Source: Candidatus Liptonbacteria bacterium (GTDB lineage Bacteria; Patescibacteriota; Minisyncoccia; UBA6257; JACOXY01). From it: 64,000 nucleotides of DNA. The translations under genes and the position numbers were made by a program. This document shows, piece by piece, positions 795 through 45,347 of the stretch. The stretch spans positions 25,864 to 89,863 of the forward strand of contig JACOXY010000012.1 of the NCBI GenBank assembly GCA_016182095.1, read 5' to 3'. The notes below the pieces were generated by a model that worked only from the letters and a program-made list of their open reading frames with translations, was not told the origin of the DNA and searched no databases. The stretch's first letter is position 1. Each line of letters starts with the position of its first letter.

Positions 795-1571
795 ATGTCA
801 CTTTGGGATTATAAAGACGAAAAAGAGTTTCGCGAGAAATGCGGATATGAAATTGATGGCGCCTGGTACCCTCGCGTAACAAAAATTCTTGAAATAAAAT
901 CCAAGCCGGCCCTCTACCGGTATTACGGCGAGGCGGCAAGTTATGCCGCGGCGCAGGAATCAACCAAGAAATCGGCAGAGGAGGGCACCATGGTGCACGA
1001 GGCGGCCGAGAAGATTTTATTGGGCGAAAGTCCAGATATTCCCGAGCAGATCAAGCCCGCCATATCGGCATTTACGGACTTCTTGGAGCGCAATAACATC
1101 CAGACTTCACCGGAACTTGTGGAGCGGAGAATTTGTAGCAAGGACCACCGCTACGCCGGCACGATTGACGCCATGGCTTTGATGGACGGCAAGTTCGGCG
1201 TCTTGGATATTAAAACTTCGCAAGGCATCTACCGCGATTACAACCTGCAAACCTCCGCCTATATGGACGCGCTCACCCCAGAGTTTAAAAATCTCCAAAC
1301 GCGGTGGATTTTGCGCATTGACCAGGTTCATACTTGTCTTAAATGCGCCGCTACTATGCGCCCCAAGGGCAACCGAAATAAAATCAGGCGTCCTTGGCCC
1401 CGTCGCGGCCCAGTTTGCGTGGACGACGCGCACGAATGGGGCGAGCTAAAGGGCTTCGTAGAAGTTCAGGAATTCCCGCATTGGAAAGACGATTTCCTGG
1501 CATTTTTAGGGGCAAAGACTTTATGGCAATGGGAAAATGAAATATGGCTAAAAAAGATTGGCTATATTTAA
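795..1571 (+). CDS. PD-(D/E)xK nuclease, Cas4/RecB-like (standalone)
   Basis: Motifs GTIDAMALMDG..VLDIKTS..QTSAYMDAL (D..D.K then QxxxY) typical of the Cas4/RecB nuclease fold. One N-proximal Cys (ICSKD) plus a C-terminal CLKC...C, reminiscent of a Cas4 Fe-S cluster. Confidence 0.55.
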   Translation: MSLWDYKDEKEFREKCGYEIDGAWYPRVTKILEIKSKPALYRYYGEAASYAAAQESTKKSAEEGTMVHEAAEKILLGESPDIPEQIKPAISAFTDFLERNNIQTSPELVERRICSKDHRYAGTIDAMALMDGKFGVLDIKTSQGIYRDYNLQTSAYMDALTPEFKNLQTRWILRIDQVHTCLKCAATMRPKGNRNKIRRPWPRRGPVCVDDAHEWGELKGFVEVQEFPHWKDDFLAFLGAKTLWQWENEIWLKKIGYI

Positions 1572-1670: not shown

Positions 1671-1973
1671 TTAGAGAGTCCGTAAAAACTTTAAAAAACG
1701 AACAAATTCTTTGCCGTAGGGCGAGAGAGTGTGCTCTACAAATTTATCACGATATTTTTTATTAATGAGTCCGGCTTGAAAGAGTCGCCGCGTGTGTTCC
1801 CCTATTGTTTTCTCGTTGGCTTTAAGAGTTTTTACAATATCTTCCAAAGTTATTTTTTCACGTTCAGCAATGAGAAGCAGTATTTGAATACGATAATGAT
1901 TTGATACTCCTTTCAGATGTCGCTCCATTTGTTTTGCGGTTTTTATTTTTGCCATGTTCACATTATACACCAC
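1671..1973 (-). CDS. ArsR/SmtB-family winged-helix transcriptional regulator
   Basis: HYRIQILLLI...HTRRLFQAGLI HTH signature; paralog of 42739..43005; the true start may be the internal ATG at 1956 (MAKIK). Confidence 0.65.
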   Translation of the reverse strand: MVYNVNMAKIKTAKQMERHLKGVSNHYRIQILLLIAEREKITLEDIVKTLKANEKTIGEHTRRLFQAGLINKKYRDKFVEHTLSPYGKEFVRFLKFLRTL

Positions 1974-24758: not shown

Positions 24759-24851
24759 AATTATATTAATAACAGAAATTTAACAAATAAGCACAAGTAT
24801 CCTGCGAGTTAATTCTCAAATTCTTAAGAATTTGAGAATAGATAAGACAGA

Positions 24852-24882
24852 AAAACAGCGCCCGCGTGGGCGCTTTTGAATT
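24852..24882. terminator. bidirectional terminator hairpin
   Basis: gcgccc-gcgt-gggcgc with a T run on the minus strand; just downstream of the minus-strand gene 24882..25268. Confidence 0.55.
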
Positions 24883-25268
24883 TAGTCGCATTCTTCTTCT
24901 TTGAAACCAGCCGGAACGGTTTTTTCTTGCATCACTAGACGAACGCTTCGGGTTTTCTTTAATACAATTTCCGCTCCGCAAAATGGGCAAAAGCGCATCT
25001 CTGCTTCCGCCGTGGATAATCCACTTGCTTGCGATGGCGAGAGAATGACCTTCAGCTCTCCGCGCACAATCAGATTTATTCCTGGCTTTGAGTTGTAAGC
25101 ATCGCTCTCACAATTAAAGTCACTTACCTTGTGATTGCCTGTATACCGAAAAGTTTCTTCGAAACTCTCACAGCATGGCTCCAAATTATCAAATCTTTCC
25201 CCGTAACCATAGCCACCCTGAATAGTTGCCGATTTATAACCAACAACACACTGCCGCTCGCCAGACAT
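24882..25268 (-). CDS. hypothetical protein with a C-terminal zinc ribbon
   Basis: CPFCGAEI plus upstream CC motifs. Confidence 0.45.
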   Translation of the reverse strand: MSGERQCVVGYKSATIQGGYGYGERFDNLEPCCESFEETFRYTGNHKVSDFNCESDAYNSKPGINLIVRGELKVILSPSQASGLSTAEAEMRFCPFCGAEIVLKKTRSVRLVMQEKTVPAGFKEEECD

Positions 25269-25430
25269 TTGATCTCTCTACCACCCTTCAAAAATTCTGA
25301 AGTAATAGTAGCATATTACAAGTTGATTTGCAATACTTCTGCATATACCCTACACATATTCAAAATATCTCCAAAAATCCTTATCAATAACATTGTGACA
25401 TTCGCCATAATGTCATAATGTTATTTTGCG

Positions 25431-31878: not shown

Positions 31879-32595
31879 ATGAGCATAAATAATCGCACTT
31901 CTACTACCCGGCAGGCGGTGATACTCGCGGCTGGCAAGGGCACAAGAATGCTTCCCTTTACGCAAAGTGTTCCTAAGCCGCTTATGGAACTGAAGGGCAG
32001 GCCGCTTCTGGAATACACCATGCTCGCGTTGCCGAGAGAAGTAAGCGAAATAATTTTGGTTGTGGGATACATGGGAGACCAGATTAAGAATCGCTTCGGC
32101 CGTCGTTTTCAAAATTACAATATTTTTTACGCCGAACAGAAAGAGCCGAAGGGAACTTTTAACGCTCTCGTGGCCGCATCATCAATGCTTCGCGACAACT
32201 TCTTGCTTTTGATGGCCGACGATATCTATTATCGTGACGATATAGAGAATATGGCAAGATACGAAAACGCGATTCTCGTCAAAAAATTAACCGGCAACTC
32301 CGAAAAGTTCGGGCACTGTATAGAAAAAAGCGGCCTTTTACGCGATTTGCTTGAGAAACCAAAAGGCATCCCCAATCCACTGGCCTGTTGCGGCGCCTAT
32401 AAGTTATCAAGAGAAATTTTAAATGAACCGATAATTTACGGCCCAAACGGCGAAGAAGTGCTCTCTCCAATGATTGGTACTTTCGCTAAAAAAATGCCCA
32501 TACATGTAGTAGAGGCAAAATTCTGGCATCCAATCGCGACCCCCGAAGACCTAAAAACCGCAGAACAACATTCTAACATTCGCAATAATGTTTGA
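31879..32595 (+). CDS. sugar-phosphate nucleotidyltransferase
   Basis: AVILAAGKGTRMLP NTP-transferase motif. Confidence 0.7.
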   Translation: MSINNRTSTTRQAVILAAGKGTRMLPFTQSVPKPLMELKGRPLLEYTMLALPREVSEIILVVGYMGDQIKNRFGRRFQNYNIFYAEQKEPKGTFNALVAASSMLRDNFLLLMADDIYYRDDIENMARYENAILVKKLTGNSEKFGHCIEKSGLLRDLLEKPKGIPNPLACCGAYKLSREILNEPIIYGPNGEEVLSPMIGTFAKKMPIHVVEAKFWHPIATPEDLKTAEQHSNIRNNV

Positions 32596-32710
32596 ATGTT
32601 GTAGTTAAGAATTCTAACTTTGGGCTTGTGCTCACACCGACTCATTCCGTCCAAATGAGACGGTTAAACTTGGAATTTGGCTTTTTTGTGGTTATAATGA
32701 GGTGAATTAT

Positions 32711-38388: not shown

Positions 38389-40794
38389 TTATAACACTTT
38401 AACCGGGTCCCATCCCTTTTTCTTTAGCAAAAGAGAATTCAACACAACCGAAACGGAACTTGTCGCCATGGCGACGGACGCGTAAATTGGATTTAAAAGC
38501 AGACCAAAAAACGGATAGAGCGCCCCCATCGCTACCGGAATTAAAATCACATTATAGGCAAATGCCCAGAAAAGATTCTGCCTGATTGTCCTCATGGTTT
38601 TTTTAGAGAGAATTATGGCGGAAACTACCGACCGCAAGTCTTTATTTATAAGAGTAATGTCCGCCGCCTCTATTGCCACGTCAGTGCCAGTGCCCATAGC
38701 AATACCCACGTCAGCGGCAGCCAAGGCCGGCGCGTCATTTATGCCGTCGCCAACCATAGCCACGACCTTACCATCTAATTGAATTTTTCTCACCTCCGCC
38801 TCTTTTTGGTCAGGAAGGACTTCGGCGAGGACTCTTTGTATGCCGGCTTTTTTTGCGATTGCTTTGGCTGTGCGCTCATTGTCGCCAGTAATCATTACCG
38901 TTTCTACTCCAAGATTCGTGAGCGCTTGAACAGCCAAACCAGCGGTATCTTTAATTGTGTCCGCGACAGCAATAGCGCCGATCACTTCTTTGCTCAGCGC
39001 CAAAAGCATTGCCGTTTTCCCCTCGCCCTGTAGTTCGTGAATTTTGTCGCGCGCTTCATTAGTTACCGCCACTTCGTGAGACTCCATAAGCCGAAAATTT
39101 CCCAAAAGCACAAGGTGCTCGGTTACTTTCCCGCTCAAACCGAACCCTGGTTCAGCTTTAAATTCTTTAATTTCCGGCTTTTCCGCATTCAACTCTCCCG
39201 CTTCTTTCTGAATTGCCGCATCAATTGGATGCGAGGACTGCCTACCCAAGAGAGCCGCGAGCCCCACCATAAATCCCTTGACGCCATGTCCTGCGATAGC
39301 TTCAAATTTTGAAACATTAAGAAGCGGGACTTTGTCTTGGGATGCCTTCTCCACAATGGTTTTGGCAAGCGGATGCTCGGAGAGATTTTCAATTGAGGCG
39401 GCAATTTGCAAGATATCCGCCTGCACCTCCGGCTCTTTGCTCTCAATAAAAGAGATTACATCGGTAACTTCCGGCTCACCGCGGGTCAAGGTCCCGGTCT
39501 TATCAAAAATCACCACGTTCACTTTATGGGCTGTTTCCAAACTTTCGGCATCCTTGATTAAAATGCCGTGCTCCGCGCCTTTGCCGGTGCCAACCATTAT
39601 TGCCGTTGGAGTCGCAAGCCCCATGGCGCAAGGACAGGCAATTATAAGCACGGCGACAGTATTCAACATCGCGAAAAGAAATGCCGGCTCCGGACCAAAA
39701 TCATACCAAACGGCAAATGTGATAAAGCCAAGCATTATTACAACCGGCACAAAATATGAAGACACCAAATCCGCGAGCCGTTGAATCGGCGCCTTGCTCC
39801 CCTGCGCTTCCTGAACTAATTTTATAATTTGAGCGAGCATGGTGTCCGAGCCAACTTTCTCTGCCCTAAAAATAAAGGTTCCGGTTTTATTAATAGTCGC
39901 CCCGATTACCGTATCCCCGCTTGCCTTAAGAACCGGAATGCTTTCTCCGGTAACCATGGATTCGTCAACCGCGGAACTGCCGTCAATAATTACTCCGTCA
40001 ACGGGAATTTTCTCTCCGGGGCGGACGCGGACAATGTCGCCAATTTCTACCTCGCTTATGGAAATATCAATTTCTTTCCCGTCACGCACAACTCGCGCTG
40101 TTTTTGCCTGCAAGCCAATAAGCTTTTTAATTGCTTCCGAGGTTCCGGCTTTGGCTTTCGCCTCAAAATACCGCCCCAAAAGGATAAGACCTATGATAAT
40201 AGTCGCGACATCAAAATAAGGGGCCGCCTCCACTCCAATTCGCTCTATTATACCCGGAAACACTGTCACAAAAGCCGAGTAACCGAAAGCAACCGTGGTG
40301 CCAATAGCAACTAACGTATCCATATTGGCGGTCCTATGCTTTAGCGCGGAGATTGACGCCTTATAAAAACCGAGGCCAGCCCAAAATTGGACGGGCGCGG
40401 CCAAGATAAGTTCCGTCCAAAAGTTTTTAAGTAATTCCGGAGCAGAATTCATTAGCCCAGGGAAACTGCCCCACAAAATAAGACCGCCTAAAAATAAACT
40501 GGCCACAACCTTGACTCTAAGAGCTTTGAGCTCTCTGTGTTTTTCTTTTTGCTCCTCATCTTCGGTTTGAATTTCTTCGCTTATCAGGGCCGCATAACCG
40601 ACATTAGCGACCGCGGAAAGCAAGTGCTCGTCCTTAACTTGCTCCGGATCATAAGTTATCGTCGCCGTTTCATTGGCCAAATTCACGCCGGCGCCCTCTA
40701 TCCCCTGAACTTTTTTAAGCGCTTGCTCGATAGTCAAAACACACGAGGCGCAATGCATGCCTTTAATTCTGAATTGTTTAGTTGTGGTAGCCAT
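38389..40794 (-). CDS. copA: copper-translocating P1B-type ATPase
   Basis: HMA GMHCASC; CPC motif; DKTGTLT; GDGINDAP. Confidence 0.9.
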
Positions 40795-40901
40795 TATAAA
40801 AAAATAAAAATTAAAAAAATTATGGCATTACTGCGCAGTAATTTATAAATTGTGAGCGAAGCGAACTCCTAAATTTTGATTTTTGCATTTTTATTTTTGA
40901 T

Positions 40902-41273
40902 TTACTTCACTACTATTTTCCCGTGAAACATATTCATGCCACAGGAAAATTTAAACTCGCCGGCTTTTTCGGGTTTTAACTCAATCGCAACTTTCTGGTT
41001 CAGGGGCAGATACTTCCTAACTCTAAAATCAGGAATTATTACCTCTTCCAGGCAGCTATTCTCGTCTCGCCGCGTAAAATTCAATGTGGTTGTTTTGCCT
41101 TTTTGAATTGAAACTGCCTGCGGAGAATATCCGCCGCTCACGACGATATCTATGCTTGAACCGCTGAAATCAGATTTAGCAACGGCCACCGCCGCCTCCT
41201 TCTTCATCAAAAAAAACCAGTAAGTTAAGGCCATCCCCAATAGAGCCGATGCGGTAACTATGATTTTGTCCAT
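40902..41273 (-). CDS. cupredoxin-like copper-binding protein
   Basis: N-terminal TM; C-terminal FSCGMNMFHGKIVV resembles a cupredoxin_1 ligand loop; adjacent to copA. Confidence 0.55.
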   Translation of the reverse strand: MDKIIVTASALLGMALTYWFFLMKKEAAVAVAKSDFSGSSIDIVVSGGYSPQAVSIQKGKTTTLNFTRRDENSCLEEVIIPDFRVRKYLPLNQKVAIELKPEKAGEFKFSCGMNMFHGKIVVK

Positions 41274-41363
41274 GTTTGTATTAACTATTTTTAATCAACG
41301 ACCCCACAAACAACGCTTGCGGTGAATCCGTAAAAAATAACCTTTAAAACACGGCGGAACATT

Positions 41364-41618
41364 CTATTTTATTATTGCCCGGTTGTGTAGCCAAGCAAAT
41401 ACGTAGGCGCTTATATAAGTGAGGATTATAACCTCAAAGAATCCGTAAATAGCTTCTGGGAAACTTATTCCGGCTTCCAGATTAACCAAATGTACCATCC
41501 AGCTAAAAAGTTGAAGCGCTAACCCGGGCACTAACGCCACCAAAAGAGCGCAGACCACATACCAAGCTCCCATAACTTCAGCGGCCGCTAAGGAAAATTT
41601 GCTTTTGTTTAATTCCAT
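41364..41618 (-). CDS. small membrane protein in the copper operon
   Basis: 84-aa ORF with two hydrophobic helices. Confidence 0.35.
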   Translation of the reverse strand: MELNKSKFSLAAAEVMGAWYVVCALLVALVPGLALQLFSWMVHLVNLEAGISFPEAIYGFFEVIILTYISAYVFAWLHNRAIIK

Positions 41619-41627
41619 AAATTTAAA

Positions 41628-41900
41628 CTATCTATTTGATAAGTTAAACACCTTAATGAGTTCCTTAATAGCCCTCTCATTTTCTTTCCTATTTTGCATC
41701 TGCTCTATAACATGAGTCCGCAGGTGATTTTCTAAAAGAAACGCGTCAAGGCTTTTAATCGACCTTTGGATTGATAGGGATTGCTCCAAAATGTCAGGGC
41801 AGTACGTCTCTTTCTCAATAGCTCTAATAAGGCCATCTAATTGACCGCGAATGATTTTTGCTCGATGAATCGCTCTTTTCTTAAGTTTTCGATCTACCAT
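41628..41900 (-). CDS. csoR: CsoR/RcnR-family metal-sensing transcriptional repressor
   Basis: IIRGQLDGLIRAIEKETYCPDILEQ...HLRTH, the W-X-Y-Z Cys/His pattern of DUF156. Confidence 0.7.
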   Translation of the reverse strand: MVDRKLKKRAIHRAKIIRGQLDGLIRAIEKETYCPDILEQSLSIQRSIKSLDAFLLENHLRTHVIEQMQNRKENERAIKELIKVFNLSNR

Positions 41901-41986: not shown

Positions 41987-42670
41987 TTATGCCTTCAAAC
42001 TTTCAACCTCTTTTTTGGCAAGCATCCTATATTTGCCAACGCCGATCCCCTTTAAGTTTATACTGCCGATTCTGACACGCCTAAGATTTTCAATGGTTAG
42101 GCGCAAGGCATCTGCCATCCGCCTTATTTGATGTTTCCTCCCCTCCTTTAATACCAGAGAAAATTTGTTTTTGCCTATTAGTTTCGCTTTAGCCGGTAAA
42201 GTGACGCCATCTTCTAATTTAATGCCCTCTTCCAGCTTTTTTGTATGCCACGGGCGAATATTTTCTCTGACTTGAACTTCGTATTCTTTTTCGATTTTGT
42301 GGTCATACCCAGTTACGGCGCGCGTAACGACGCCATCATTCGAAAGCAAAATTAATCCCTCGCTTTCCTTATCCAAACGTCCCACTGTATTTAGATTTTT
42401 AAATTCCGGTAAAAGTTCAAAAATTGTCTTGCTATCGTCATGATTTTTATCACAAACAATTCCGCGCGGCTTATTCACGGCAATGGTAATTTTTTTATTG
42501 ATTTCGTTTTTTAGAGCTTCGGCAATTTCAATCTTGTCCTTCTCCGGATCAATCTGGCGCCCTAAATCGCGCACAACCTCGCCATTCAGCTTAACAAGCC
42601 CAGCTTTCATATATTTTTCTGCCTCCCTCCGCGACAGAACTCCCTTTTGTGATAAGTATTTTTGAATCCG
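41987..42670 (-). CDS. rRNA pseudouridine synthase (RsuA/RluB family)
   Basis: S4 domain (RIQKYLSQKGVLSRREAE); catalytic GRLDKESEGLILL; start trimmed to MRIQKY. Confidence 0.75.
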   Translation of the reverse strand, partial: RIQKYLSQKGVLSRREAEKYMKAGLVKLNGEVVRDLGRQIDPEKDKIEIAEALKNEINKKITIAVNKPRGIVCDKNHDDSKTIFELLPEFKNLNTVGRLDKESEGLILLSNDGVVTRAVTGYDHKIEKEYEVQVRENIRPWHTKKLEEGIKLEDGVTLPAKAKLIGKNKFSLVLKEGRKHQIRRMADALRLTIENLRRVRIGSINLKGIGVGKYRMLAKKEVESLKA

Positions 42671-42693
42671 CATTGAGCTTATTATGCAGTTTA

Positions 42694-42727
42694 AACATTC
42701 TAACATTCTTGAGAATGTTAGAATGTT
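42694..42727. promoter_or_regulatory. 34-bp palindrome (15-bp perfect arms, 4-bp spacer) downstream of the ArsR-like gene
   Basis: aacattctaacattc-ttga-gaatgttagaatgtt. Confidence 0.6.
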
Positions 42728-42738
42728 TATTGATGAAA

Positions 42739-43005
42739 TCAAAAAGTTTTGGCGAACTTAACCATCATTTTGCCAAAAGGTGACAATGAATGCTCAACTT
42801 CCCTGCCATGATATTTCTTATAAAGAAGGCCAGCGCCAACCAAACGTCTCGTATGCTCTGATGCTGTTTTTATGTTGCAATCAAGTTCTTTAGAAATTGC
42901 CTCTAGGGTCATGCCTTCGTTGCTGGAAATTAAAAATAAAATATCAAGCCGCCTGTGATTTGCCATACCCTTGAAATATCTCTCTAACTGTTTTGATGTT
43001 TTCAT
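42739..43005 (-). CDS. ArsR/SmtB-family transcriptional regulator (paralog of 1671..1973)
   Basis: HRRLDILFLI...HTRRLVGAGLL; shares a C-terminal VEHxLSPxGK motif with the first paralog. Confidence 0.65.
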   Translation of the reverse strand: MKTSKQLERYFKGMANHRRLDILFLISSNEGMTLEAISKELDCNIKTASEHTRRLVGAGLLYKKYHGREVEHSLSPFGKMMVKFAKTF

Positions 43006-43024
43006 AACCTAAGAACTGTATCAT

Positions 43025-43058
43025 AGTTTTCCAAAACATTCTAACATTCTCAAGAATG
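43025..43058. promoter_or_regulatory. 34-bp palindrome upstream of the ArsR-like gene (putative operator)
   Basis: aacattctaacattc-tcaa-gaatgttagaatgtt; same arms as 42694-42727 with the spacer inverted. Confidence 0.6.
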
Positions 43059-43186
43059 TTAGAATGTTTTGGAATGGGTAATGAGTGGATAAGAAACCTT
43101 TTGCATTAAACTATGTCAGTAAATGGTTAATACAAGAATGTCGTAATGTTGTGGGCAAGATTTTAAGGTAAAAATCGCTCCGATGT

Positions 43187-44263: not shown

Positions 44264-45067
44264 TCAGCTTGAGGTCGCCGTAGAAGTGCCAGTGCCGCCA
44301 TCTCCCCTAGCCGCCTTGAAGTCAGCTTTGGCTTTTTCAAAGGCCGCCTTGAAATCGGCTTGCGCTTTTTCAAAGGCCGCTTTCTTAGCTTCAATAAGCG
44401 GCTTTACTCCGTCTCTAATTTTATCTGCCGCTTTGCGATCAGCTTGGAACTTTTCCCGCGCGGCCTTAAGCGCCGCTTGCAAATTAGTCCTCACAGTAGC
44501 AGGCTTTACGCCGCCTGCGCAATCGGCCCTTGCCTTATCAAGCGCCGCTTTTACAGAGGCCTTAAAAGCACCAACAGCGCTCTTTACAGCGTCGCGTCGC
44601 GCCACTACCGCATTATCTATCCCATCTCTAAACGCATCGAGCGCCGTATTGATTGCCGCTCGGCGGGCTTCTATCGCCACCTTAAGGGCGGAGTGATAGG
44701 CATTTAGCGCCGCGCGCTCGGCTTCGCTTAAGGCTTTTTCCTGAAGCTTCACAAAGTGTTGAGCTAATCGCTCATCATGATTTTTTAGGCGTTCATCGTG
44801 ACGGGCATCGCGCTCATCACGCCTTGTGTCTAACTTAGTTTCTCGCTCATTTTTCCTTTCCGAAATAAGCGCATCTTGGCGAGAGAGATCTTCCTCTATT
44901 TTTTGGAGGCGCGCCTCCAGCGTCTCGCAAAAATTCGCGCCATCTCTTCCGCGATCAGAGGTGGTCGCATTTCTAGTTTGCGCGAAGGAAACAGCAGGTG
45001 TTACTAAACTCAACACGAGAATTGAGTTAATAACTGCCTCCGTTGATTTTTTAAAGATTTTTTTCAT
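44264..45067 (-). CDS. secreted Ala/Lys-rich coiled-coil repeat protein
   Basis: Signal peptide after MKKIFKK; repeated KAAFEKAQADFKAAFEKAKADFKAA-type heptads. Confidence 0.5.
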   Translation of the reverse strand: MKKIFKKSTEAVINSILVLSLVTPAVSFAQTRNATTSDRGRDGANFCETLEARLQKIEEDLSRQDALISERKNERETKLDTRRDERDARHDERLKNHDERLAQHFVKLQEKALSEAERAALNAYHSALKVAIEARRAAINTALDAFRDGIDNAVVARRDAVKSAVGAFKASVKAALDKARADCAGGVKPATVRTNLQAALKAAREKFQADRKAADKIRDGVKPLIEAKKAAFEKAQADFKAAFEKAKADFKAARGDGGTGTSTATSS

Positions 45068-45347
45068 CGTATGTTTTTCCCATGCCATCCAGAGCATCAC
45101 TGTCAGATTGAATAAGATCGGCATCACCATCTTCGCTTGCATACCCTTCCGCCTCAAGAACCGCGTTTTCCAAAACAACCGCGTCTAAATCATCAGCCGA
45201 ATCTACTAATAATTGAGAGGGCTGTCCGGGCGCCTGGCCCTCTTCGGGGGCGATAACCGGAGATTGCTTGAAGTAGAAAAACACCGCGAGAAGAAGCGCT
45301 ATAAGCGCGATTGATAACAAAATTTTCCAGCCAGAATTTGATTCCAT
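45051..45347 (-). CDS. small TM protein with an acidic tail
   Basis: 98-aa ORF with one TM helix and a D/E-rich C-terminus. Confidence 0.4.
   Translation of the reverse strand: MESNSGWKILLSIALIALLLAVFFYFKQSPVIAPEEGQAPGQPSQLLVDSADDLDAVVLENAVLEAEGYASEDGDADLIQSDSDALDGMGKTYDEKNL

Follow-up and report, generated by a model that had tools for sequence, protein, structure and literature searches.

A minimal ArsR/SmtB-fold regulator between two copies of a four-hexamer palindrome: a predicted site-gene-site cassette in Patescibacteria

Proteins of the SmtB/ArsR family bind one or two 12-2-12 inverted repeats that overlap promoters, and the characterised members are mostly repressors sitting over the promoter they control (PMC8790569). 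HlyU, a family member that does not sense metals, binds palindromic intergenic DNA prone to cruciform formation, attenuates the cruciform, and relieves repression rather than contacting the polymerase (PMC10325908). Here we analyze a locus in a 64,000-nucleotide stretch of a Candidatus Liptonbacteria genome (contig JACOXY010000012.1, positions 25,864 to 89,863; referred to as the window), in which the gene of an 88-residue winged-helix regulator lies between two copies of a 34-bp palindrome. We assign a probability of about 0.65 to the reading that the palindromes are the paired operators of the regulator encoded between them, forming a compact site-gene-site cassette that is conserved in most of the loci sampled. 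The elements of the cassette, with the upstream and downstream copies abbreviated as the UP and DN sites, are as follows.

42739-43005, minus strand: ArsR/SmtB-fold winged-helix regulator of 88 residues (paralog 2), assigned from Pfam, a PDB profile, an AlphaFold2 (AF2) model and Foldseek
42694-42727: predicted downstream operator (DN site), AACATTCTAACATTC-TTGA-GAATGTTAGAATGTT; the palindrome reaches 42692-42729
43035-43068: predicted upstream operator (UP site), AACATTCTAACATTC-TCAA-GAATGTTAGAATGTT; the palindrome reaches 43029-43074, and its centre reads TTGAGA on the minus strand
43020-43025, minus strand: candidate -10-like box TATGAT of the regulator; it follows the UP site by 9 nt and precedes the ATG by 14 nt
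43133-43150, plus strand: single-arm copy CAAGAATGTCGTAATGTT, consisting of half the centre and two hexamers, with 82% identity over 22 nt

The window contains exactly two occurrences of AACATTCTAACATTC-N4-GAATGTTAGAATGTT, which have identical arms and the spacers TTGA and TCAA, and none of 100 dinucleotide-preserving shuffles contained a match to the 34-mer pattern. Over 36 nt (42693-42728 and 43034-43069), one copy is the exact reverse complement of the other. Both are perfect palindromes around a 2-bp centre, with arms of 18 nt in the DN copy and 22 nt in the UP copy, and each arm is built from two tandem 8-mers, AACATTCT. A preliminary description of this DNA had placed the first copy exactly where it lies, between the stop codon of the regulator and the start of a pseudouridine synthase gene. 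For the second copy, it had recognised the identical arms and the inverted spacer but set the site 10 bp too low, at 43025-43058; the end it gave for the entire finding, 43062, cuts through this copy, which runs to 43068. The DN site lies 12 nt past the stop codon of the regulator (42739-42741) and 20 nt ahead of the synthase ATG (42673), and the end of the UP site is separated from the regulator ATG (43005) by 30 nt. The single-arm copy sits in the spacer between ychF and the regulator, 82 bp beyond the UP site, and lone arms were also found in two loci (L004 and L038) of the comparative sample described below.

The regulator has features of a winged-helix DNA-binding protein with a recognition helix at K46-L55 (KTASEHTRRL). 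Its sequence scores above the Pfam cut-offs for HTH_5 (24.5 bits, cut-off 22) and HTH_20 (28.4 bits, cut-off 27), MarR also exceeding its cut-off, and below that of the NCBIfam model HTH_metalloreg for ArsR/SmtB proteins (36.6 bits, cut-off 55). A profile of 26 homologues searched against the PDB matched HlyU best (4k2e, E 2e-6; 29% identity over the structural alignment), followed by CadC (1.7e-4) and ArsR (1.2e-3), with Lmo1102 also among the matches. The AF2 model (predicted local distance difference test score 92.5) displays the complete a1-a2-a3-a4-b1-b2-a5 topology, with helices at residues 4-14, 17-28, 34-40, 45-58 and 76-87 and strands at 61-66 and 69-74. Foldseek aligned it to CadC, HlyU, YgaV, PagR, CzrA, NolR and SqrR with TM (template-modelling) scores of 0.80-0.90. 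Judged from this model, paralog 2 is a divergent, minimal ArsR/SmtB-fold protein, a description we use because the fold is complete but the NCBIfam score stays below the cut-off. The protein is 100% identical to that of one Candidatus Liptonbacteria metagenome-assembled genome, and 88-residue homologues with 65-77% identity occur in Uhr-, Kaiser-, Pace- and Doudnabacteria and other lineages. The family is compact: at 50% identity and E <= 1e-10, it makes up 92 clusters in a set of 1.84 billion representatives.

Inspection of the sequence for the canonical metal ligands, CXC in a3 and DxHx10Hx2E/H in a5, found neither of them; a3 reads TLEAISKEL and a5 reads PFGKMMVKFAKTF. Four residues, C43, H17, H51 and H72, are near-invariant or invariant across the regulator family and correspond to no ArsR/SmtB metal site that we know of. 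C43 is replaced by Ala in paralog 1 (see below) and in a QHTRSL subfamily. As to an inducing signal, C43 and the histidines, taken with neighbouring genes for MsrA/MsrB, nitroreductase, rhodanese and TspO, give a hint of redox or sulfur sensing.

To follow the arrangement across lineages, one genome per GTDB species was scanned, which yielded 80 loci with regulator identities of 61-75% from Paceibacterota, Uhr-, Doudna-, Lloyd-, Giovannoni-, Moran- and Liptonbacteria, among others. Sites were anchored on the core ATTCT-NN-AGAAT and scored over four hexamers, giving 188 sites with the consensus aAnAACATTC-YN-ACATTCT-NN-AGAATGT-NR-GAATGTTnT. The 34-bp motif within it, AACATTC-YN-ACATTCT-NN-AGAATGT-NR-GAATGTT, consists of four ACATTC hexamers, two pointing right and two pointing left, around a 2-bp centre, with the inner pair spaced 10 bp centre to centre. 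The hexamers are near-invariant across the sampled Patescibacteria lineages. An upstream site lies within 150 bp of the gene in 71 of the 74 loci with flanking sequence, and a site at the 3' end is present in 72 of 78; both sites occur in 64 of 72. The UP and DN sites are 304-455 bp apart. Their sequences are identical at 34 of 34 positions in just 2 of 66 orthologous pairs, which makes the perfect pair of the window an extreme case.

The position of the DN site is tied to the end of the regulator gene, and the site usually overlaps the stop codon. In 31 loci its centre falls 8 nt beyond the stop codon; in 20 others it precedes the last base of that codon by 1 nt. In the former class, the outer hexamer encodes the C-terminus K-T-F-stop (AAA-ACA-TTC-TAA); in the latter, TAA has become CAA and the reading frame continues (QHS) to a TGA at the palindrome centre. 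The overlap of the outer hexamer with the T-F-stop codons appears to be the ancestral state, from which the DN site of the window, 12 nt beyond the stop codon, is displaced. The genes around the cassette do not share this constancy. A search for conserved synteny found none, the commonest neighbour family occurring in 5 of the 80 loci, and Pfam scans of 82 and 54 flanking genes revealed no dominant family; enolase (three times), NYN (four times), HAD, nitroreductase, MsrA/MsrB, TspO and glycosyltransferases were among those found. A stress or detoxification flavour of these genes is only an impression. Several genomes carry more than one paralogous cassette (L001/L006, L002/L012, L040/L052, L054/L060, and the window).

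Variation at the centre of the motif connects the sites to the protein. The centre dinucleotide is TG/CA, TA or GC, rarely CG/AT, and is uniform within one locus. The alignment column most strongly associated with the class of centre is R54, the second Arg of EHTRRL in the recognition helix, with a mutual information of 0.77 bit against 0.34 for the next column. Residue 54 is Arg in 57 of 58 loci with TG/CA/TA centres and K, S or A in all 21 loci with GC centres. Among the matches listed in a metagenome scan, the association recurs, with Arg accompanying a non-GC centre in 24 of 25 cases and K, S, A, V or Y accompanying GC in 18 of 18. Because the co-variation was replicated in this independent sample, the regulator very likely reads the motif DNA, and the pairing of R54 with the centre dinucleotide resembles a specificity determinant, as which we predict it to act.

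The UP sites also carry the marks of a promoter. We scored as a -10-like box any hexamer with at least 5 of 6 consensus matches, A2 and T6 being required, at an offset of 0-7 nt after the site. Such a box follows 43% of UP sites on the gene-facing side, and 4-9% of the positions used for comparison (the far side, DN sites, solitary sites and metagenome sites). The offset depends on the centre: it is 4 in 11 of 14 cases in which the centre reads TTGAGA, and 1 in 10 of 11 cases in which it reads TCAAGA or TGCAGA, never with TTGAGA. Both offsets produce a 17-bp spacing to a -35-like hexamer supplied by the palindrome centre itself, TTGAGA (5/6) or TTCTCA (4/6). Many of the -10 boxes in orthologues are of the extended type (TGnTAnnAT). 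In many loci the ATG follows 6-9 nt beyond the -10 box, so close as to indicate leaderless mRNAs on the evidence of spacing. A gap of 6 nt from the -10 box to the start codon also forms a peak among 411 genes, which suggests that leaderless mRNAs are common in these genomes.

The reading we favor, in which the two palindromes are paired operators of the regulator between them, draws on the conservation of the motif, its co-location with the gene, the co-variation of protein and DNA, the promoter geometry of the orthologues and the protein fold. Under this model, the inner hexamer pair, with its 10-bp spacing, would take one winged-helix dimer, and the outer pair would probably recruit further subunits. 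The UP copy would be the regulator's own promoter-operator, and its geometry points to negative autoregulation, because the -35 hexamer and the spacer would lie under a protein bound to the palindrome, which would thereby exclude RNA polymerase. The DN copy is most likely a second cognate site, fixed to the 3' end of the gene and acting together with the UP site on the cassette. It may do so through cooperative looping over ~0.32 kb, or transcription may be halted at the edge of the cassette by a bound-protein roadblock together with a stable 3' RNA hairpin (-21 kcal/mol at the DN site), or both mechanisms may operate.

Several observations weigh against this reading, which rests wholly on comparative sequence analysis. 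In the window itself, TATGAT lies 9 nt after the UP site instead of 1-4 nt, and the spacer to TTGAGA would be 22 bp; because this spacing breaks the rule seen in the orthologues, the assignment of the regulator promoter in the window is tentative, and a consensus promoter scan also flags TAGACA-18-TAAAAT further upstream. The counts that link residue 54 to the centre (57 of 58 and 21 of 21) are not phylogenetically independent, and the GC-centre class may amount to a few clades. Helical phasing of the two sites was dropped as evidence for looping, as the 10.5-bp vector strength of 0.28 is weak and is confounded by fixed gene length and promoter geometry. There are also copies of the motif away from the regulator. 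A strict scan of metagenome contigs returned at least 166 sites on at least 120 contigs. Of the 166 sites listed, 50 adjoin a regulator homologue, 25 of them upstream and 25 downstream of it; 81 are clearly away from any, and 35 are too near contig ends to be assigned, so that about half of the strict copies listed have no regulator beside them. The 81 regulator-free sites listed lie between tandem (36), divergent (14) or convergent (13) genes, inside crude open reading frame (ORF) calls (17), or next to a gene call on one side (1). Among the 63 intergenic ones, 13 thus separate convergent genes and few are followed by a -10 box, and the genes adjoining the regulator-free sites listed have no common function. 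A pure promoter-operator model fails to explain these copies. Extra sites also accumulate near the regulator, at 1-1.7 per 10 kb within 1.5 kb, dropping to 0.5-0.8 at 2-3 kb.

The last group of adverse observations concerns the symmetry of the sites. The two arms of one site differ by 1.66 mismatches on average, as compared to 2.03 between sites of the same locus (0 of 2000 permutations), and they are identical in 34% of within-site comparisons versus 18% between sites. In addition, some palindromes are split exactly at the centre by inserts of 32-41 nt that leave both arms intact (L053:2301-2363, L053:2660-2722, L053 near 880-950, L022:212 and L038:3259); at L053, the UP site, the DN site and a third copy carry one common 33-nt insert. 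The excess self-complementarity and the split palindromes are a hint of a structural component, either a hairpin or a cruciform. Other variants were found at L055 (2060-2100 and 3290-3330), where the outer hexamers are kept and the inner ones are replaced by a GC-rich palindrome, CCCCGCCATGGCGGGG, and at L056 (3260-3370), where the 8-mer AACATTCT of the left DN arm has grown to about ten tandem copies in what looks like slippage.

The DN copy deserves separate consideration, as the preliminary description had proposed that it controls the synthase gene downstream. Two further features bear on this proposal.

41987-42673, minus strand: RsuA/RluB/RluF-family pseudouridine synthase with S4 and PseudoU_synth_2 domains (TIGR00093, 141 bits, above the cut-off)
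42681-42686, minus strand: candidate -10-like box CATAAT in a leaderless geometry, following the DN site by 7 nt and separated from the synthase ATG by another 7 nt

The synthase scores nearer to RsuA/RluF than to RluB and starts at ATG 42673, with the S4 domain from residue 1, not at TTG 42742. Its gene is co-directional with that of the regulator, 66 nt from the regulator stop codon, and CATAAT is placed as at the leaderless promoters of the regulators themselves, so that the DN copy at 42694-42727 could be primarily an operator of a synthase promoter. We consider this doubtful. The synthase is not a conserved neighbour, no neighbour family exceeding 5 of 80 loci, and from one genome to another the genes after or next to the sites show no relationship, 59 of 89 site-adjacent genes being singletons. 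In 7 loci with a convergent next gene, the DN site is likewise retained, inside a stop-to-stop gap of 39-139 bp, as it is before a convergent gene at paralog 1 in the window. A -10-like box at offset 0-7 follows DN sites in 7% of loci, equal to background; a single hexamer of the CATAAT type is within the 4-9% background rate, and the idea that DN and solitary sites are promoter modules like the UP sites was rejected as a general rule (7-9% versus 43%). Because the register is set by the regulator stop codon, the next genes are unrelated or convergent and -10 boxes are not in excess, the conserved role of the DN copy is best assigned to the cassette itself, not to the next gene. Control of the synthase therefore does not hold as a general role of the DN copy; what is left of the earlier proposal is a possible local co-option, for which CATAAT is weak evidence, in which a leaderless promoter of the RsuA/RluB-like gene would additionally overlap the DN copy of the window.

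A different possibility is that the palindromes work mainly by structure, as an RNA 3'-end stabiliser, a terminator hairpin or a DNA cruciform, with the protein being secondary, or binding or attenuating the extruded structure. The RNA hairpins predicted for the two copies are stable, at -21.4 and -29.9 kcal/mol with z scores of -6.8 and -9.6, the DN site is transcribed together with the gene, and the convergent copies (13 of the 63 listed), the self-complementarity above the same-locus control and the arms kept around 32-41-nt inserts all fit such a function, as does the GC-rich stem at L055, one copy of which is followed by the T-run TTGTTTTT and resembles an intrinsic terminator. The closest solved relative, HlyU, attenuates a cruciform (PMC10325908). 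Yet the hexamers are near-invariant across lineages, beyond what pairing needs, and the residue in the recognition helix co-varies with the centre. Covariation of mirror positions far exceeds that of shuffles, but it mostly vanishes when arms of same-locus sites serve as the control, and positions 11 and 28 are unpaired in at least 26% of sites; covariation as a sign of an RNA hairpin thus reflects mostly lineage preference, with a residual excess that keeps it from being fully rejected. The UP and DN sites are equally palindromic, although the UP site is upstream of its -10 box and hence untranscribed from that promoter. The preliminary description had named a role solely as terminators among the outcomes that would undo its proposal; neither copy has a T-run, a terminator scan calls nothing at either palindrome, and the stems contain ~5 G/C in 16 pairs, on which grounds an intrinsic terminator was rejected. 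A T-rich tail follows about 20% of sites (at least six T in the 9 nt after the stem in just 18-21% of downstream and other sites), and a search of the whole window against Rfam 15 at gathering score detected three tRNAs only. A mainly structural function is thus unlikely, though a hairpin or cruciform may serve a secondary function. A compromise, to which we give rather low credence, keeps the protein and makes regulator and palindromes a portable, self-insulated cassette, whose DN copy, together with the solitary copies at gene boundaries, would be protein-dependent boundary elements; these would work either as roadblock terminators or through cruciforms or hairpins that the protein holds or releases. 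If true, it would account for the motif copies found between convergent genes, for self-complementarity in excess, for palindromes that are split yet keep intact arms, and for the variant with a GC-rich, terminator-like stem.

The sign of regulation and the origin of the unit invite two more alternatives. The regulator could be an activator, the palindrome at -35 being in a class II position from which it would recruit RNA polymerase: the site centre is at about -33 to -38 from the inferred start, GC or CA centres leave a weak -35 (TTCTGC, TTCTCA) as in activator-dependent promoters, and HlyU has been named a transcriptional activator. Activation is nonetheless improbable, as TG centres yield TTGAGA (5/6) with an extended -10 that should need no activator, characterised ArsR/SmtB members are mostly promoter-covering repressors (PMC8790569), and HlyU itself relieves repression without polymerase contact (PMC10325908). 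The whole site-gene-site unit could also be, or derive from, a mobile or copy-paste palindromic element, like a miniature inverted-repeat transposable element (MITE) or a repetitive extragenic palindrome (REP), with the gene analogous to the REP-associated tyrosine transposase (RAYT) of a REPtron and the sites as dispersed copies. The lack of synteny around a protein 61-75% identical across lineages, the several paralogous cassettes per genome, and the lineage-specific details common to same-genome copies are in keeping with this, as are the single insert in three copies at L053, the single variant core in two at L055 and the 8-mer expansion at L056. Against it, the gene encodes an 88-residue DNA-binding domain with no catalytic domain, the motif, unlike REPs, is conserved across the sampled lineages, and strong copies are few (3 per 64 kb in the window). 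The flanks prolong the palindrome (A...T) instead of showing direct target duplications, and the flanking copies have no fixed relative orientation (among pairs with asymmetric centres, 20 direct and 10 inverted). The motif had 0 matches in viral contigs, on which an origin from a phage or mobile element was set aside; we regard mobility as very improbable. The same mixture of orientations, together with the absence of a recombinase among the window neighbours of the cassette (ychF, the pseudouridine synthase and a csoR-copA cluster), led us to reject an invertible DNA switch.

A second regulator of this kind, paralog 1, is encoded near the start of the window and is bracketed by its own repeats.

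1671-1955, minus strand: paralog 1, ArsR-like regulator of 94 residues, 56% identical to paralog 2
1972-2005, unstranded: paralog-1 upstream site, reading AACATCCTTACAAAC-TTGA-GAATGTAAGGGTGTG on the gene strand
1610-1643, unstranded: paralog-1 downstream site of the sister motif, separating paralog 1 from a convergent gene (795-1571, plus strand)

The recognition helix of paralog 1 reads KTIGEHTRRL, with S49 changed to G, and C43 is changed to A. Two orthologues were found, at L050:1369-1635 (87% identical) and L063:3933-4211 (67%), both with a canonical cassette nearby. All three complete paralog-1 loci are bracketed by a sister motif, AACAT[AC]C-NN-ACAAAC-T-NN-A-G[AT][AT]TGT-NN-G[GT]ATGTT, and in these loci (TGn)TATAAT comes directly after the upstream sister site, followed by a leaderless ATG; in the window, TATAAT is at 1962-1967 and the ATG 6 nt later. 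Both repeats flanking paralog 1 contain ACATTCTCAAG, which bears out the earlier observation that the two paralogs have the ACATTC half-site in common. This half-site is common to both because the paralog-1 sites of the window and of L050 are hybrids of one ACAAAC half and one ACATTC half. The two paralogs look like a diverged factor-operator pair, and it is speculation that the hybrid sites leave room for cross-talk. The operator family that had been postulated for these paralogous ArsR-like regulators is well supported by sequence comparison, with the bracket in most of the 80 loci, the R54 co-variation, the sister motif and the fold all pointing to it.

Two further relatives of the palindrome were detected elsewhere in the window; like the single-arm copy, they had gone unnoticed in the preliminary description.

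32567-32600, unstranded: related palindrome AACATTCTAACATTC-GCAA-TAATGTTTGAATGTT, 2 mismatches
25389-25422, unstranded: degenerate relative AACATTGTGACATTC-GCCA-TAATGTCATAATGTT, in the gap from the L9 stop codon to the start of a 128-residue ORF

The copy at 32567-32600 overlaps the 3' end of an NTP-transferase ORF (31879-32595), which reads through it, and precedes tRNA-Gln by 111 nt. Both relatives display the inner variant ACATTC-G-NN-A-TAATGT in the same orientation, which alters T18 and G22, two positions invariant in the 188 canonical sites. They could be sites of a third, unseen paralog or products of decay. At 24812-24839, a perfect 28-bp palindrome (ATTCTCAAATTCTT/AAGAATTTGAGAAT) has the architecture of the motif with AAATTC hexamers. 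It is flanked by the convergent L27 gene (24439-24717, plus strand) and a 128-residue ORF (24882-25268, minus strand), and is unique among all loci fetched.

Beyond the cassette, a copper cluster (38389-41900, minus strand) lies directly downstream of the synthase.

41628-41900, minus strand: CsoR-type repressor
41364-41618, minus strand: DUF5676 protein with two transmembrane segments
40902-41273, minus strand: cupredoxin-like protein
38389-40794, minus strand: CopA-type P-type ATPase

At 44310-44459, 33-nt tandem or dispersed repeats are located inside a 304-residue ORF rich in A, K, E and R (44264-45178, minus strand), whose product is probably a coiled-coil protein of repetitive sequence or a secreted one.

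For Patescibacteria, the candidate phyla radiation (CPR), which are mostly uncultivated, there is to our knowledge almost no experimental information on transcription control. The cassette offers a factor-site pair with a predicted specificity determinant, R54, a promoter architecture and a paralogous sister pair. Its predictions can be tested with recombinant protein and synthetic DNA, with no need for culturing, and promoters and small regulons in CPR metagenomes could be annotated with its help. It also raises the concrete question of why a regulator would retain an operator copy right at the stop codon of its gene. We found no earlier description of the motif or the protein family in the searchable literature, in which subscription journals are thinly covered, and the site-gene-site arrangement is apparently undescribed.

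Among known systems, the closest are the ArsR/SmtB autorepressors SmtB, CzrA, CadC, ZiaR and AzuR, which share with the regulator the fold, the small and presumably dimeric winged helix-turn-helix, and an imperfect or perfect inverted repeat with a 2-bp centre over the core promoter, one or two per control region (PMC8790569). By comparison among orthologues, the equivalent here is a 16-2-16 repeat over the predicted promoter, in 71 of 74 loci. The arms are 16 nt long and made of two tandem 8-mers, giving four hexamers per site, whereas those of the autorepressors are 12 nt; no a3N or a5 metal site is visible; the second repeat is at the stop codon, ~0.32 kb away and outside the control region; and most of the 80 loci keep the two repeats together as a unit. 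HlyU of Vibrio, the best match of solved structure, resembles the regulator in its size (~90-100 residues) and in its palindromic, cruciform-prone DNA (PMC10325908). It differs in that it counters H-NS and a cruciform at virulence loci, its own gene is not known to be bracketed, and its sites are not of the four-hexamer type.

More distant systems share single features with the cassette. In HrcA-CIRCE (controlling inverted repeat of chaperone expression), a near-unchanged inverted repeat is paired with one repressor across distant phyla and is reported to serve as both DNA operator and mRNA hairpin; CIRCE has a 9-bp spacer, a defined regulon of chaperones and a protein from a family other than ArsR/SmtB. 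The likeness is in the conserved repeat and its single factor; the genes flanking the cassette lack a functional theme. The lac O1-O2/O3, gal OE-OI and deo systems combine a promoter operator with a second, identical or similar operator some hundred base pairs downstream; in them, the repressor is a tetramer or loop formation has been demonstrated. The cassette likewise has two operators, predicted in this case, 304-455 bp apart, with phasing that is weak and confounded by gene length. In REPtrons, an IS200/IS605-type Y1 transposase (RAYT) is bracketed by REPs, of which there are tens to hundreds per genome; here, too, a gene is bracketed by a palindrome that is also dispersed between genes, including convergent ones, but the gene encodes an 88-residue winged helix-turn-helix protein, and the copies are few, conserved in sequence across lineages and without fixed orientation. 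Taken together, these comparisons describe what appears, on sequence grounds, to be a system known in kind, an ArsR/SmtB-type autoregulator with inverted-repeat operators, and unusual in its putative design: a four-hexamer 16-2-16 site that would double as the -35 region, a second copy in the regulator's own stop codon, and a whole unit that seems to be conserved across the sampled Patescibacteria lineages amid ever-different neighbours.

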